This document shows, piece after piece, positions 5,581 through 12,384 of a DNA stretch of 64,000 nt. The notes below the pieces were generated by a model, which had not been told where the DNA came from, searched no databases, and worked only from the letters and a program-made list of their open reading frames with translations. How positions within the stretch are numbered: the first letter of the stretch is position 1; every line of letters starts with the position of its first letter. Source of the DNA: a bacterium HR19 (GTDB taxonomy: Bacteria > Calescibacteriota > Calescibacteriia > Calescibacteriales > Calescibacteriaceae); the NCBI GenBank assembly GCA_002898315.1, contig BEHV01000001.1, positions 196,620 to 260,619 on the forward strand. Reading direction: 5' to 3'. A program made the position numbers and the translations under genes.

Positions 5581-7071
5581 GTGCAAGAAACAGAAAAAAA
5601 CTTACTTCAAACCCTTGAAAGAATAGCAAAATTGCTCTCATCTTACGGAAGTTTTGACAGCATACTGAAACAGGTTCTACATGTGATAGAAACAGAAGCA
5701 GGACTAAAAGACCCAGCAATAACTATACTCAACTTCTCCTCATCGCTCAGACCGAAAGATAAAAAAAGAGAAGAATTAGAAAAGAAGTATAAACCACCTT
5801 TGAAAGATAAAGTCCCCTTCAACGGCTCTACCTTCTTAATATCTCCGATAAGAATAGAGGGAAGAGATATAGGTTTCATAAGCGCCATAGCAGAAGAAAA
5901 AGATGTAAGAGAAGAGGTTCTCTCATTTCTCTCATTTGTCGGAAGTTTGATCGGATTTTCATTTTTTGTCCTCGCAAAGGAAAAAACAGAGGTAAAAAAT
6001 GTAGGGAACATAATTTTCAGGTCAAAACAAATGGACGAGGTGATAAAATTAGCTCTTGAAGTTGCAAAATCAGATGCCACAGTTCTTATAAGAGGAGAAA
6101 GCGGAGTAGGGAAGGAGCTCCTCGCAGAACTCATACACAATAACTCCCCGAGAAAATCAAAAATGCTCGTCAAAATAAACTGCGCAGCAATACCCGAAAA
6201 TCTCCTTGAAAGTGAGCTTTTCGGATACAAAAAAGGCGCATTCACAGGAGCAATAACAGACAAAAAAGGAAAAATAGAGATGGCAGATGGAGGAACAGTT
6301 TTTTTAGACGAAATAGGAGACCTCCCCCTTCCCCTTCAAGCAAAAATACTCCGACTTATCCAGAACAAAGAAATAGAACCAATAGGAGGACAACCGAAAA
6401 AGGTAGATGTCAGAATAATTTCAGCTACGAACAGAAACCTTGAAGAACTTGTGAAAGAAGGAAAATTCAGAGAAGATCTATATTACAGATTAAATGTTAT
6501 TCCCATCTATATCCCACCCCTGAGAGAGAGAAAAGAGGATATTTTGCCTCTCGTTGAGTTCTTCATAGAAAAATTCAACAAAAAGTATAAGAAAAACATA
6601 TCAATATCAAAGGGAGCGCTCACGATTCTTGAAAAATACCAGTGGTATGGAAATATCAGAGAACTTGAAAACCTTATAGAACGACTTGTCCTGACCTCAT
6701 CTGACCTTGTCATAACTCCTGACGATATTCCAGATTACATAAAAGAAAAAATACACGAGGAGGAAAAAAGAAAGAAAGAAGAGCCAGAAGAAGTTTTGCC
6801 ATCAAAACGAGAAAAGAAGGCAGAAGAAAATAAGAAAAAAACTGCTCTGCAAGAGATTTTTGAGAAACTGGAAATTTCAGATTCTCGTGGTTTGCTCTCT
6901 TTGATAGAAGATATTGAAAAGAAAATAATTGAAAATGTCCTCGCTGAATCAAAGAATATATCAGATGCTGCAAGGAAGCTCGGAATATCAAGGAGACAAC
7001 TTGAATGGAGGTTAAGGAAATACAAAATTGAGTTTCTTAATTATGGGAGGAAAAGCTCTTTTCAGAAATGA
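5581..7071 (+). CDS. Sigma-54-dependent transcriptional activator, NifA-like: N-terminal GAF domain, AAA+ sigma-54 interaction domain, C-terminal HTH. GTG start.
   Basis: Walker A GESGVGKE, the GAFTGA loop (ELFGYKKGAFTGA) and the C-terminal Fis-type HTH (AARKLGISRRQLEWRLRKY). There is no receiver domain. The N-terminus has GAF-like features. Confidence 0.85.
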   Translation: MQETEKNLLQTLERIAKLLSSYGSFDSILKQVLHVIETEAGLKDPAITILNFSSSLRPKDKKREELEKKYKPPLKDKVPFNGSTFLISPIRIEGRDIGFISAIAEEKDVREEVLSFLSFVGSLIGFSFFVLAKEKTEVKNVGNIIFRSKQMDEVIKLALEVAKSDATVLIRGESGVGKELLAELIHNNSPRKSKMLVKINCAAIPENLLESELFGYKKGAFTGAITDKKGKIEMADGGTVFLDEIGDLPLPLQAKILRLIQNKEIEPIGGQPKKVDVRIISATNRNLEELVKEGKFREDLYYRLNVIPIYIPPLRERKEDILPLVEFFIEKFNKKYKKNISISKGALTILEKYQWYGNIRELENLIERLVLTSSDLVITPDDIPDYIKEKIHEEEKRKKEEPEEVLPSKREKKAEENKKKTALQEIFEKLEISDSRGLLSLIEDIEKKIIENVLAESKNISDAARKLGISRRQLEWRLRKYKIEFLNYGRKSSFQK

Positions 7072-7151
7072 TTTTAACAAAAATGATAACAATATTGTAA
7101 AAAACTGCTCATTTTTTAACAAGAATGTAAAGAATTTGAACTCAATACCCC

Positions 7152-7167
7152 TGGCACACCTTTTGCA
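7152..7167 (+). promoter_or_regulatory. Sigma-54 promoter, an exact TGGCAC-N5-TTGCA consensus match, upstream of glnA
   Basis: ctGGCACaccttTTGCAata lies 89 nt upstream of the glnA ATG. An extremely A-rich ~77-nt leader follows, ending in a GGAGG ribosome-binding site. Confidence 0.8.
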
Positions 7168-7255
7168 ATATTTAATAAAAAAGCAGAAAAGAAACAAGAA
7201 AAAAGCAAAAAAGAAAAGAAAAAAGAAAATTCAAAGAGAAAAGGAGGTAAAAAAA

Positions 7256-8683
7256 ATGGCAAAGCAAAGACCACGAGACGCAAAGGATCTCATGGAAATG
7301 ATAAAGGCAGAAAAAGCAGTATTTGCCGATATAAAGTTTGTAGACCCACTCGGAAGATTACAACACCTCACAGTACCAACTTCACAACTCACAGAAAAAG
7401 TGATAGAGGAAGAAGGAACAGGTTTTGACGGTTCCTCAATAAGAATGTGGCAATCAATACACGAGTCAGACATGCTCCTTTTTCCTGACCCTAAAACCGC
7501 AGTTGTTGACCCTTTCTTCAAAGAAAAAACAATATCTCTTATCGCGAATGTAAAAGACCCCATAACACACGAACCATACTATAAAGACACAAGGCAGATC
7601 GCTCAGAACGCAGAAAAATACCTTAAAGAAACCGGAATTGCCGATTCCACTCTCTTCGGTCCAGAACTTGAATTTTTCATCTTTGACTCCGTATCAGCAG
7701 CAGAAGCTCCTAACTACTCTTTTTACAAAATTGATTCCGAAGAAGGAGCGTGGAGAAGTGGAGATGAAAATTCAAAAGGATATAAAATAAGATATAAGGA
7801 AGGTTATTTCCCAGCATCACCTTTTGACACCCTAACAGATATAAGAAACGAAATATCTCTCATTCTTGAGGAGATGGGCATTGATGTAGAGGTCCATCAC
7901 CACGAAGTCGCAACTGCTGGTCAAGGAGAGATAGATATAAGAGCAAGACCTTTGGTTGAAATGGCAGATAACGCCATAATGCTAAAATATGTTTTGAAAA
8001 ACGTCGCAAAAAAATACGGTAAAACCGCAACCTTTATGCCAAAGCCCATTTTCGGAGATAACGGAAACGGAATGCACACACACCAGAGCTTGTGGAAAAA
8101 CGGAAAACCGCTGTTCGCAGGAGAAAAATATGCGGGTCTTTCAGAACTCGCTATGTGGTATATAGGTGGAATAATAAAACACGGAAGAGCCCTCTGTGCC
8201 ATTACAAACCCAACAACAAACTCCTACAAAAGATTGGTCCCAGGATATGAAGCTCCTATAAACCTCGCATACTCGCAAAGAAATAGGTCCGCAGCGATAA
8301 GAATTCCTATGTACTCCCCCTCACCAAAGGCAAAAAGAATTGAGGTCAGATTCCCAGACCCATCTTGCAACCCATACCTAGCATTCTCAGCAATGCTACT
8401 TGCGGGACTTGATGGAATAGAAAAGAAAATCAATCCCGGAGAACCATTTGACACCAACATATACAAACTCCCACCAGAAGTTCTCGCAAAAGTTCCTAAA
8501 ACACCTTCCTCTCTTGAAGAAGCTCTTGAAGAACTCAAAAAAGACCACGATTTCCTCCTCAAAGGTGGAGTATTCTCAAAAAAATTTATAGAAGAATATA
8601 TTGAATGGAAGTATGAGAACGAAGTTAAAGAGCTTTATGCAAGACCTACTCCATGGGAAATAATATCATACTTTGATGCATAA
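7256..8683 (+). CDS. glnA: Glutamine synthetase type I. The ORF-track start at 7028 is an artefactual upstream extension.
   Basis: GGAGG ribosome-binding site 8 nt before the ATG at 7256. The translation (MAKQRPRDAKDLM...GNGMHTHQSL...NPTTNSYKRLVPGYEAP) carries the GS catalytic and adenylylation-loop region motifs. Length is 476 aa. Confidence 0.9.
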   Translation: MAKQRPRDAKDLMEMIKAEKAVFADIKFVDPLGRLQHLTVPTSQLTEKVIEEEGTGFDGSSIRMWQSIHESDMLLFPDPKTAVVDPFFKEKTISLIANVKDPITHEPYYKDTRQIAQNAEKYLKETGIADSTLFGPELEFFIFDSVSAAEAPNYSFYKIDSEEGAWRSGDENSKGYKIRYKEGYFPASPFDTLTDIRNEISLILEEMGIDVEVHHHEVATAGQGEIDIRARPLVEMADNAIMLKYVLKNVAKKYGKTATFMPKPIFGDNGNGMHTHQSLWKNGKPLFAGEKYAGLSELAMWYIGGIIKHGRALCAITNPTTNSYKRLVPGYEAPINLAYSQRNRSAAIRIPMYSPSPKAKRIEVRFPDPSCNPYLAFSAMLLAGLDGIEKKINPGEPFDTNIYKLPPEVLAKVPKTPSSLEEALEELKKDHDFLLKGGVFSKKFIEEYIEWKYENEVKELYARPTPWEIISYFDA

Positions 8684-11332: not shown

Positions 11333-11404
11333 GTGAAAAAAGCAAAAGATTTTCGTCAAAATTTTAATTAATGGCTAAAATAAAATTAAGGAGGTATTGA
11401 AGAC

Positions 11405-11743
11405 ATGAAAAAGATAGAGGCAATTATAAAACCTTTTAAGCTTGACGATGTAAAAGATGCACTAACATCAATAGGAATCAGCGGTATGACTATAACAGAG
11501 GTAAGGGGTTTTGGAAGACAAAAAGGGCACACAGAGCTTTACAGAGGCGCAGAATATGTCGTTGATTTCCTTCCCAAAATAAAAATAGAGATTATTGTAC
11601 CAGATGATATGGTTGATAAAGTAGTAAAAACCATAATTGAATCTGCAAAAACAGGAAAGGTAGGCGATGGAAAAATATTTATCTACCCCATAGAAGAAGC
11701 CATAAGAATAAGAACAGGTGAGAAAGGAGAAGACGCTATATAG
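11405..11743 (+). CDS. glnK: PII nitrogen regulatory protein
   Basis: [20 protein letters not shown]...[11 protein letters not shown]...YRGAEY (T-loop) ...[18 protein letters not shown]. 112 aa. Linked to amtB. Confidence 0.9.
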
Positions 11744-11808
11744 AAATGACAATCAAAAATCTCTCTTTTTTCTTCATATTTATAAAGTAAAATCTTAAAA
11801 TTAGTTTT

Positions 11809-12384
11809 GTGGGAAGCTTTGAACTTTTTGAGCTACTCAAAGAAAAGCTCGGAGAAGAAACCGCAAGAAAACTCATTGACTACATTGAAAACATAAAAAG
11901 TCAGGTCGTCACAACAGATGTCCTCATAAAATTGCTTGACCTCACAAAATCTGAAATCATCTCAAAAACTGAAAAAGATAAAACCGAAATATTAGCTAAA
12001 ATTGAAGAACTGAAAATAAACACAGATAAAAAAATTGAAGAGTTGAGAATAGAAACAGACAGAAAAATTGAAGAGTTGAGAATAAGTACAGATAGAAAAA
12101 TTGAAGAGTCAAGAATAAGCATAGATAGAAAAATAGAAGAGTTGAGAATAGAAACAGACAAAAAAATTGAAGAGTTGAGAATAAGTACAGATAGAAAAAT
12201 TGAAGAGCTGAGAATGAGCTTTGAGCTCAAAATAAAAGAACTTGATTCTAAAATTGAGCAGTACAGATTAGAAACTCAAAGAGATATTGAAAAAACAAAG
12301 TCATCGCTTATAAAGTGGATGATTGGACTTATGATAGCTCAAACCACCCTCATCATCTCTGTCATAGCTTTCCTGTCAAAATAA
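11809..12384 (+). CDS. DUF1640-like tail-anchored coiled-coil protein with six 11-residue (KIEELRIETDR) repeats and a C-terminal TM helix. GTG start.
   Basis: Hendecad repeats encoded by 6x33-bp DNA repeats. The C-terminal WMIGLMIAQTTLIISVIAFL TM anchor and the N-terminal FELFELLKEKLGEETARKL resemble the bacterial DUF1640 / CCDC90-MCUR1-like family. This is from memory, not a database search. Confidence 0.55.
   Translation: MGSFELFELLKEKLGEETARKLIDYIENIKSQVVTTDVLIKLLDLTKSEIISKTEKDKTEILAKIEELKINTDKKIEELRIETDRKIEELRISTDRKIEESRISIDRKIEELRIETDKKIEELRISTDRKIEELRMSFELKIKELDSKIEQYRLETQRDIEKTKSSLIKWMIGLMIAQTTLIISVIAFLSK
12025..12222 (+). repeat. Six tandem 33-bp direct repeats (gatagaaaaattgaagagttgagaataagtaca-like) inside the coiled-coil CDS
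   Basis: Direct reading: units start at 12025, 12058, 12091, 12124, 12157 and 12190, with >85% identity. Confidence 0.9.

Follow-up and report, generated by a model that had tools for sequence, protein, structure and literature searches.

A predicted outer-membrane barrel family and a stand-alone GAF protein in a candidate sigma-54-dependent ammonium cluster of a hot-spring bacterium

INTRODUCTION

Accounts of how bacteria scavenge nitrogen and potassium start at the inner membrane, with AmtB and Kdp. Starvation-induced specific porins that are paired with high-affinity importers are also known (e.g., OprP and PhoE with Pst), and the gene cluster that we consider here may encode a counterpart of such a pair, i.e., an ion-selective outer-membrane channel that we propose to be coregulated with the high-affinity inner-membrane importer of a scarce ion. 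The cluster lies in a stretch of 64,000 nucleotides (nt) from the hot-spring bacterium HR19 (Calescibacteriota; contig BEHV01000001.1 of GenBank assembly GCA_002898315.1, positions 196,620 to 260,619 of the forward strand), the whole of which we call the window. In it, genes for a 273-amino-acid (aa) protein with a predicted beta-barrel fold and a 166-aa GAF-domain protein stand between glnA and the pair of amtB and glnK, downstream of a gene for a sigma-54 activator. An earlier note on this DNA had drawn attention to this gene order, had called the two intervening genes noncanonical insertions, and had suggested that they encode an outer-membrane channel for ammonium or nitrogen solutes and a small-molecule sensor that feeds the Amt/PII module. 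What the note observed is confirmed with two corrections, which concern the GAF domain of the activator and the last gene of the series; its interpretation is partly supported by the comparisons outlined below, which strengthen the idea of a channel and make that of a sensor plausible. In total, the cluster is best explained as a nitrogen-limitation module that includes an outer-membrane NH4+/K+ channel barrel and a PtsP-type GAF sensor, a reading that we consider probable, if only modestly so.

Several described systems resemble parts of this module. OprP and PhoE are 16 stranded, trimeric, and anion selective, whereas the barrel of the window is predicted to have 12 strands and, judging from its conserved residues, an acidic interior. 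It would share its fold class, that of 12-stranded outer-membrane barrels, with KdgM, NanC, FapF, and the NalP translocator. KdgM and NanC (PDB entries 4pr7, 2wjr, and 8xua) are substrate-specific channels that pass acidic sugars through a basic pore; in structural alignments, their identity to the window barrel is 4 to 8%, and the latter differs in the acidic character of its conserved inner face and in having cation importers as its genomic partners. Membership in the KdgM/NanC sequence family can be set aside, as no profile hidden Markov model (HMM) of that family matched. FapF (PDB entry 5o65) is a plugged 12-stranded barrel for amyloid secretion with 8% identity; its context differs as well, in that no fap genes lie near the window barrel, the partners of which are amtB/glnK or kdp.

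Among operons, the closest described counterpart is found in Geobacter sulfurreducens, where a unit made up of one “hypothetical protein” gene plus glnK and amtB (GSU0938 onward) is upregulated during nitrogen fixation (PMC2995071). In two metagenome-assembled genomes (MAGs) of Geobacter (loci L055 and L056 below), the order is barrel, glnK, amtB, and the barrel gene holds the same slot before glnK-amtB as GSU0938 does; the G. sulfurreducens unit contains neither a GAF gene nor glnA, and its regulation runs via GnfM/GnfR (PMC2995071, PMC2725144). The activator in the window resembles the NifA-like activators, including Nlh1 and Nlh2 of Aquifex, in its AAA+ domain with a GAFTGA motif, in its HTH_8 domain, and in having NifA as its best NCBIfam match; it differs in scoring below the NifA cutoff, in its gutted GAF domain, and in its apparent target, glnA/amtB rather than nif genes. 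Finally, PtsP (enzyme I-Ntr) has a GAF domain to which both glutamine and 2-oxoglutarate bind, with opposing effects (review PMC13104625). PtsP GAF domains (PDB entries 3ci6 and 3trc) are closest to the 166-aa protein in both sequence and fold and have the motifs HPxFxY..GSGEExYxSFLGIP and GVLVVQT in common with it; unlike PtsP, the window protein stands alone, lacks the phosphoenolpyruvate-utilizing phosphotransferase domains, and overlaps amtB, a trait found in Calescibacteria only.

A BARREL FAMILY THAT NEIGHBORS BOTH AmtB AND Kdp

Neither the 273-aa protein nor 40 members of its family match any Pfam or NCBIfam model, even at E values of up to 1. A word-indexed database search returned 274 relatives at an E value of ≤0.001, which are 45 to 55% identical between phyla and are all labeled hypothetical. 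The earlier note had predicted a beta-barrel, and an AlphaFold model built on a 40-sequence alignment agrees, giving a 12-stranded barrel with a predicted local distance difference test (pLDDT) score of 80.8 and a predicted template modeling (pTM) score of 0.75. With a signal peptide followed by 12 antiparallel amphipathic strands, the modeled protein has the makeup of a 12-stranded outer-membrane beta-barrel. An invariant TPSTTFWAPSTP..Q opens the mature protein, directly after an Ala-X-Ala-type signal peptide cleavage site. The strands have a near-invariant polar face (H60, D64, Y66, E92, D96, N111, K113, D210, Q263, D265, and many glycines) and an apolar face that varies across the family; the positions that are at least 90% conserved include eight acidic versus two basic residues. 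Which face borders the lumen and which the lipid was assigned by residue alternation alone. Based on these features and on the neighborhoods described next, the protein is best read as a so far undescribed outer-membrane channel.

When one genome was scanned for each species, 234 barrel loci were confirmed, and the context statistics refer to the best 80 of these (the L-numbers used here), which were searched with the proteins of the window and later with KdpA, KdpB, KdpC, and KdpD as queries. The loci nearest to the window come from “Candidatus Calescibacterium” and organisms closely related to it, and in three related Calescibacteria genomes (L001, L002, and L004) both the barrel gene and the GAF gene are kept in place. 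At 47 of the 80 loci, amtB or glnK lies within 1 kb of the barrel gene on the same strand, with the barrel gene most often first; a further 6 have one or the other within 5 kb. Over all 80 loci, the context is one of nitrogen at 53, of potassium at 9, and of neither at 18. The pairing with amtB/glnK spans Myxococcota, Acidobacteriota, Nitrospirota, Planctomycetota, Verrucomicrobiota, Gemmatimonadota, Desulfobacterota, and others, and it includes two acidobacterial loci, L019 (positions 9974 to 13691) and L020 (9827 to 13867), in which the order is barrel, glnD (encoding the PII uridylyltransferase), glnK and amtB is not adjacent. Sigma-54 sites with at most one mismatch stand directly upstream of the barrel gene at 21 of the 80 loci, against about 1.0 expected from the loci-wide rate. 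Based on this gene order evidence, the barrel gene is a regular, often sigma-54-preceded partner of amtB/glnK across many phyla, and the description of it as a noncanonical insertion has to be given up.

The potassium contexts emerged from loci without amtB, in which Pfam identified KdpA (3.8e-245), KdpC (1.6e-69), and KdpD (1.3e-94) beside a P-type ATPase of Kdp size that is consistent with KdpB. The barrel gene precedes kdpA-B-C-D in L008, L011, L014, and L018, is inserted before kdpD (kdpA-B-C, barrel, kdpD) in L009, L013, and L015, and has kdpABCD about 2.5 kb downstream in L026 and L027. The same barrel family thus also sits in kdpABCD operons, and a monovalent cation of the NH4+/K+ class is therefore a more likely substrate than a nitrogen solute as such; the two ions have nearly equal sizes. 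In our view, these contexts are most simply explained by a cation-selective channel of the outer membrane that would serve whichever high-affinity importer shares its operon. The channel proposed in the earlier note is in this way strengthened and widened to many phyla, and its nitrogen-solute part is disfavored by the kdp contexts.

Two further arrangements deserve mention. In the Haliangiales locus L017 (8347 to 10620), a gene of the Na+/H+ exchanger family (cation/proton antiporter) lies immediately downstream of the barrel gene. Second copies of the barrel, 60 to 67% identical and with neither amtB nor kdp nearby, occur in L003 (6283 to 9128) and L005 (9929 to 13174), where they are followed by a gene with a bifunctional nuclease domain and two open reading frames (ORFs) without a Pfam match; L005 is a “Candidatus Calescibacterium” MAG, and L003 is a MAG without classification, the barrel copy of which groups with those of Calescibacteria.

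A STAND-ALONE GAF PROTEIN THAT OVERLAPS AmtB

The earlier note had called the 166-aa protein a GAF domain, and this call is borne out by Pfam (PF13185, GAF_2, 48.0 bits versus a cutoff of 28.6, 1.8e-12; PF01590, GAF, 42.9 versus 22.4) and by an AlphaFold model (pLDDT, 89.6) for which every top Foldseek match is a GAF domain, led by 3trc and 3ci6. As to what the domain senses, the note had wavered between 2-oxoglutarate and a cyclic nucleotide. The best NCBIfam match is to the N terminus of PtsP (2.8e-19), and the PDB sequences matched are again 3ci6 (9.6e-18) and 3trc (9.6e-16). By analogy, it is plausible that the protein is a PtsP-type sensor and a candidate binder of glutamine and 2-oxoglutarate, and not of the cyclic nucleotide type. 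It is not PtsP itself: the PtsP model scores 68.9 bits versus 583 and aligns over positions 26 to 140 of 748 only, and PtsP has about 750 residues. In public databases, a protein of bacterium HR19 that is 100% identical to it bears the label “Phosphoenolpyruvate-dependent phosphotransferase system,” and its relatives are labeled either PtsP or methionine-R-sulfoxide reductase. Both kinds of label look like overannotation from domain similarity, the former because the 166 residues match only the GAF portion of PtsP.

Stand-alone PtsP-like GAF proteins are widespread, with lengths of 140 to 185 residues and identities of 35 to 50% in an exhaustive HMMER search and a profile search. Of the 80 loci, L001, L002, and L004 are the only ones that, like the window, have a GAF gene between barrel and amtB; for this gene, the word noncanonical is apt, in that the insertion is specific to Calescibacteria. 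The 22-nt overlap with amtB that the note had reported holds to the nucleotide, and the ribosome-binding site of amtB falls within the 3′ part of the GAF gene. An overlap is always kept, with lengths of 22 nt in the window, 19 nt in L001, 1 nt in L002, and 4 nt in L004, across genomes whose AmtB proteins are 56 to 95% identical (the lowest identity to the window protein being 56%). It is solely this conserved overlap, a gene arrangement of one lineage, that makes a link of the GAF protein to Amt/PII plausible.

Two models fit these observations. In one, the GAF protein would be coproduced with AmtB and would bind AmtB or GlnK. In the other, it would supply sensory input in trans, replacing what the activator has lost; since the GAF protein is encoded within the operon that the activator would switch on, this second model implies feedback.

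THE ACTIVATOR, THE PROMOTER, AND THE OPERON

The first gene of the cluster encodes what we classify, from its domains, as a bacterial enhancer-binding protein of the NtrC/NifA class, with an AAA+ domain (Sigma54_activat, 240.5 bits), a GAFTGA motif visible in the translation, and a C-terminal helix-turn-helix (HTH) domain (HTH_8, 48.7 bits). Pfam and NCBIfam matches are confined to residues 137 to 484. Neither of the two well-known names applies: the NifA equivalog (TIGR01817) scores 388.1 versus a cutoff of 528.85 with only residues 137 to 484 matching, and for NtrC there is no Response_reg match and the model aligns from residue 134 onward. Residues 1 to 140 have no Pfam GAF match. They align weakly, end to end, with the GAF domains of NifA-like proteins (hhalign E value of 1.3e-4, probability of 54%), and about 37 central GAF residues (the GEGITG...P.F block) are missing, with a Lys/Glu-rich linker in their place. 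We read this N terminus as a vestigial GAF domain; of the NifA-like GAF/AAA+/HTH activator described in the earlier note, the AAA+ and HTH parts stand, and the intact GAF domain does not.

The same layout is found in L001, L002, and L004, so that the vestigial activator GAF domain and the stand-alone GAF gene co-occur in the same four genomes. Full GAF-AAA+-HTH activators are encoded directly upstream of the barrel-amtB-glnK series in one planctomycete (L025, 409 to 1962), in two deltaproteobacteria (L043, 5091 to 6704; L069, 4426 to 6051), and in a verrucomicrobium (L076, 6314 to 7867). These neighbors suggest that, in the groups concerned, ammonium uptake has a NifA-like nitrogen regulator of the one-component kind. 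Elsewhere in the window, a second sigma-54 activator paralogue (46581 to 47885, + strand) is 46% identical to the first across the AAA+ and HTH region, and a sigma-54 site with one mismatch, TGGAACctactTTGCA (44067 to 44082, − strand), lies about 2.5 kb from it.

The promoter that the earlier note had called perfect is indeed so: with TGGCAC-N5-TTGCW as the consensus, TGGCACaccttTTGCA is the sole exact match in the 64 kb, and it stands 89 nt upstream of the glnA ATG, as expected of a predicted sigma-54-dependent promoter. No further sigma-54 promoter was found within the cluster, and the remaining near matches of the window, at 44067 and 54030, are on the opposite strand. When the spacer between activator gene and glnA is aligned across the four Calescibacteria genomes (the window, L001, L002, and L004), the −24 element TGGCACAC is invariant in all of them, and the −12 element deviates in L002 and L004 (TTCCC). 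Upstream of the promoter, a 22-nt direct repeat occurs in two copies 42 nt apart, both of which are conserved in L001, L002, and L004; we take these copies to be candidate binding sites of the activator, with a spacing that corresponds to about four helical turns.

All of the ORFs listed in the earlier note were found in the order, on the single strand, and with the short gaps that it gave (Table 1). From glnA onward to the coiled-coil ORF, the spacers are 70, 18, −22 (the overlap), 72, and 65 nt, and a GGAGG ribosome-binding site precedes every gene from glnA through glnK. The true start of glnA is the ATG at 7256, after a GGAGGT ribosome-binding site, and not the TTG at 7028. The glnA and amtB products score well above the cutoffs of their families (TIGR00653, 650.8 bits versus 429; TIGR00836, 443.6 versus 343.3). 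The glnK product matches P-II (Pfam, 5.8e-37) and the NCBIfam PII models (3.7e-56, slightly under the equivalog cutoff) and has the T-loop Tyr51. No intergenic terminator on the + strand was predicted across the cluster, the sole + strand candidate being a weak site within the barrel gene, and the promoter and terminator scan of the window gave a number of matches at chance level. No known RNA element (Rfam, searched over the whole window and over 5000 to 13000) was found, and hence no glutamine riboswitch in the glnA leader. Given the single sigma-54 promoter, the short spacers, and the lack of both an intergenic + strand terminator and an Rfam element in these searches, it is plausible, and in our view most likely, that glnA and the barrel, GAF, amtB, and glnK genes form a single transcript.

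TABLE 1 Features of the cluster in window coordinates
Feature	Positions	Strand	Evidence or remark
Sigma-54 enhancer-binding activator gene	5581..7071	+	Sigma54_activat 9.8e-72, AAA_lid_14, HTH_8 (Pfam)
Candidate upstream activating sequence, copy 1 of direct repeat, TTTTAACAAAAATGATAACAAT	7072..7093	+	
Candidate upstream activating sequence, copy 2, TTTTAACAAGAATGTAAAGAAT	7114..7135	+	
Predicted sigma-54 (−24/−12) promoter, TGGCACaccttTTGCA	7152..7167	+	Exact consensus match
glnA, type I glutamine synthetase	7256..8683	+	TIGR00653, Gln-synt_C, Gln-synt_N
Predicted 12-stranded outer-membrane beta-barrel, unannotated family, 273 aa; candidate NH4+/K+ channel	8754..9575	+	
Stand-alone GAF protein, PtsP (enzyme I-Ntr) type, 166 aa; candidate glutamine/2-oxoglutarate sensor	9594..10094	+	
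amtB, ammonium transporter	10073..11332	+	TIGR00836
glnK, PII signal protein	11405..11743	+	P-II (Pfam)
Coiled-coil protein, 11-residue tandem repeats	11809..12384	+	Probably outside the system

The leader and spacer sequences have features of their own. Between promoter and ribosome-binding site, positions 7177 to 7242 form a purine tract rich in A, in which a 7-nt unit resembling AAAAAAG is repeated 7.6 times. A long A/G-rich glnA leader is present in L001, L002, and L004 as well, with a differing sequence, and the leader of the window matches no Rfam family. The spacers between glnA and the barrel gene in L002 and L004 share the block AATCTAATAnGGGGATACTCTAA.

A PROPOSED MECHANISM AND ITS RIVALS

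We propose a mechanism in which the activator would bind the upstream repeats and fire the sigma-54 promoter, giving one transcript with glnA and the barrel, GAF, amtB, and glnK genes. The barrel would form a small 12-stranded channel, its interior lined by the invariant acidic and polar residues, which would pass NH4+, and probably K+ too, through the outer membrane at low external concentrations. AmtB would then carry the ion over the inner membrane, glutamine synthetase would fix the ammonium, and GlnK would close AmtB once nitrogen returns. Production of the GAF protein would be matched to that of AmtB via the overlapping reading frames, and the protein would most likely signal the balance of glutamine and 2-oxoglutarate either to AmtB or to the activator with the gutted GAF domain.

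One alternative takes the barrel to be a strictly ammonium-specific (or nitrogen-solute) channel, with the kdp-linked relatives as separate paralogues that have shifted to K+. The numbers speak for it, in that 53 of the 80 loci are linked to amtB/glnK versus 9 to kdp, sigma-54 sites are common upstream of barrel genes, and the copy in the window lies within a glnA-amtB-glnK unit. On the neighbor-joining tree, however, K and N members do not form two clades but interleave (L018 with L022, L026 with L019 and L020, L027 with L025, and L009 with L006, L007, and L077). Nor does any of the 42 conserved positions tabulated distinguish K-context from N-context members, and Q54, H60, D64, Y66, E92, D96, N111, K113, E118, D210, Q263, and D265 are invariant in both groups. 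At least one kdp-linked copy, that of L014, also has a sigma-54-like site upstream. We regard an ammonium-specific channel as unlikely. Still less likely, and in our judgment quite improbable, is a barrel that is not a solute channel at all, i.e., an enzyme or anchor in the outer membrane or a plugged barrel, with another role in the envelope and merely coregulated with starvation-induced uptake systems. The many invariant residues assigned to the lumen would fit an enzyme or a binding site equally well, a point that also tells against the channel that we prefer; set against it are the lack of a match to any HMM of a catalytic family and the repeated, independent placement of the barrel gene beside two different inner-membrane cation importers, which most simply means transport. 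A third alternative concerns the GAF protein, which could be unrelated to nitrogen sensing and AmtB, whether as a free methionine-R-sulfoxide reductase (fRMsr), as a cyclic nucleotide binder, or as a passenger gene that entered the operon in the ancestor of the Calescibacteria. Homologous stand-alone genes elsewhere are solitary with unrelated neighbors, some sources label homologues methionine-R-sulfoxide reductase, and structures of fRMsr and of cAMP-binding GAF domains are among the fold matches at E values of about 1e-8. By sequence, however, the fRMsr match is insignificant (3mmh, E value of 0.39, versus 1e-17 for the PtsP GAF domain) and an 18-member family alignment has no conserved cysteine column (the two Cys residues of the window protein are not conserved in it), on which grounds an fRMsr identity is rejected; the amtB overlap has also been retained in four diverged genomes. 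An unrelated GAF protein seems to us rather unlikely, though less so than either alternative for the barrel.

Several points weigh against the module as we have drawn it, with a cation channel in the outer membrane and a PtsP-type sensor. Ammonium and K+ are generally assumed to use general porins, and a dedicated channel is not strictly needed. The activity and ion selectivity of the channel, the cotranscription of the genes, and the ligand and partner of the GAF protein are all deduced from sequence, predicted structure, and context; in particular, the pore-facing side follows from residue alternation alone, and the ligand proposed for the GAF protein is carried over from PtsP of proteobacteria, to which identity is about 25 to 27%. 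Eighteen of the 80 loci have neither a nitrogen nor a potassium context, and although 7 of these are on truncated contigs, 11 have full flanks. From glnA to the barrel gene, L002 (9806 to 10000) and L004 (3576 to 3808) have a spacer of 190 to 230 nt, versus 70 nt in the window, and cotranscription with glnA is for this reason unlikely to be universal. Outside Calescibacteria, the stand-alone GAF genes are solitary beside unrelated genes (three proteins in seven contig placements, some of them duplicates). Lastly, GSU0938 is tied to the barrel family solely by its position in the operon.

We found no outer-membrane ammonium channel or porin and no kdp-linked barrel in the literature that was searched, which excluded most subscription journals. 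It is possible, if somewhat short of probable, that the barrels are the first recognized family of dedicated outer-membrane channels for cations of NH4+/K+ size, spread over a dozen or more phyla and recruited interchangeably by AmtB and Kdp, with a split sensor added in the Calescibacteria. That a conserved barrel family accompanies both importers, and often has a sigma-54 site ahead of it, suggests that many environmental bacteria control passage across the outer membrane; the groups concerned include acidobacteria, myxobacteria, Nitrospirota, Geobacter, and planctomycetes. If the channel role is true, several hundred “hypothetical proteins” would gain a functional name. The GAF gene that overlaps amtB may in turn encode a second regulator of the Amt channel, independent of PII. 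If the sensor is truly split, we speculate that the stand-alone GAF protein either supplies the input that the activator has lost or gates AmtB alongside GlnK.

THE DOWNSTREAM GENES

The last ORF in Table 1 had been called DUF1640-like in the earlier note, a label that finds no support: no DUF1640 profile matches at E values of up to 0.01, and the only matches, to Apolipoprotein and the sll1863 family, are below their cutoffs. The ORF contains a 33-nt tandem repeat (11998 to 12219; 6.6 copies, with a 99-nt superperiod) that encodes 11-residue repeats of the RKIEELRIxTD type. It has a C-terminal hydrophobic helix; its start codon is GTG, and no ribosome-binding site is visible ahead of it. After glnK, it is kept only in L001, the closest relative, and is absent from L004; because of this lack of conservation in L004, we leave it out of the nitrogen module, to which it probably does not belong. 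Further downstream, a 131-aa ORF (12421 to 12816) has a lipoprotein-like N terminus (a hydrophobic stretch leading to ...FTSCGS) and a Lys/Glu-rich body, and no other + strand gene lies between it and a convergent ABC-ATPase gene (12840 to 14111).

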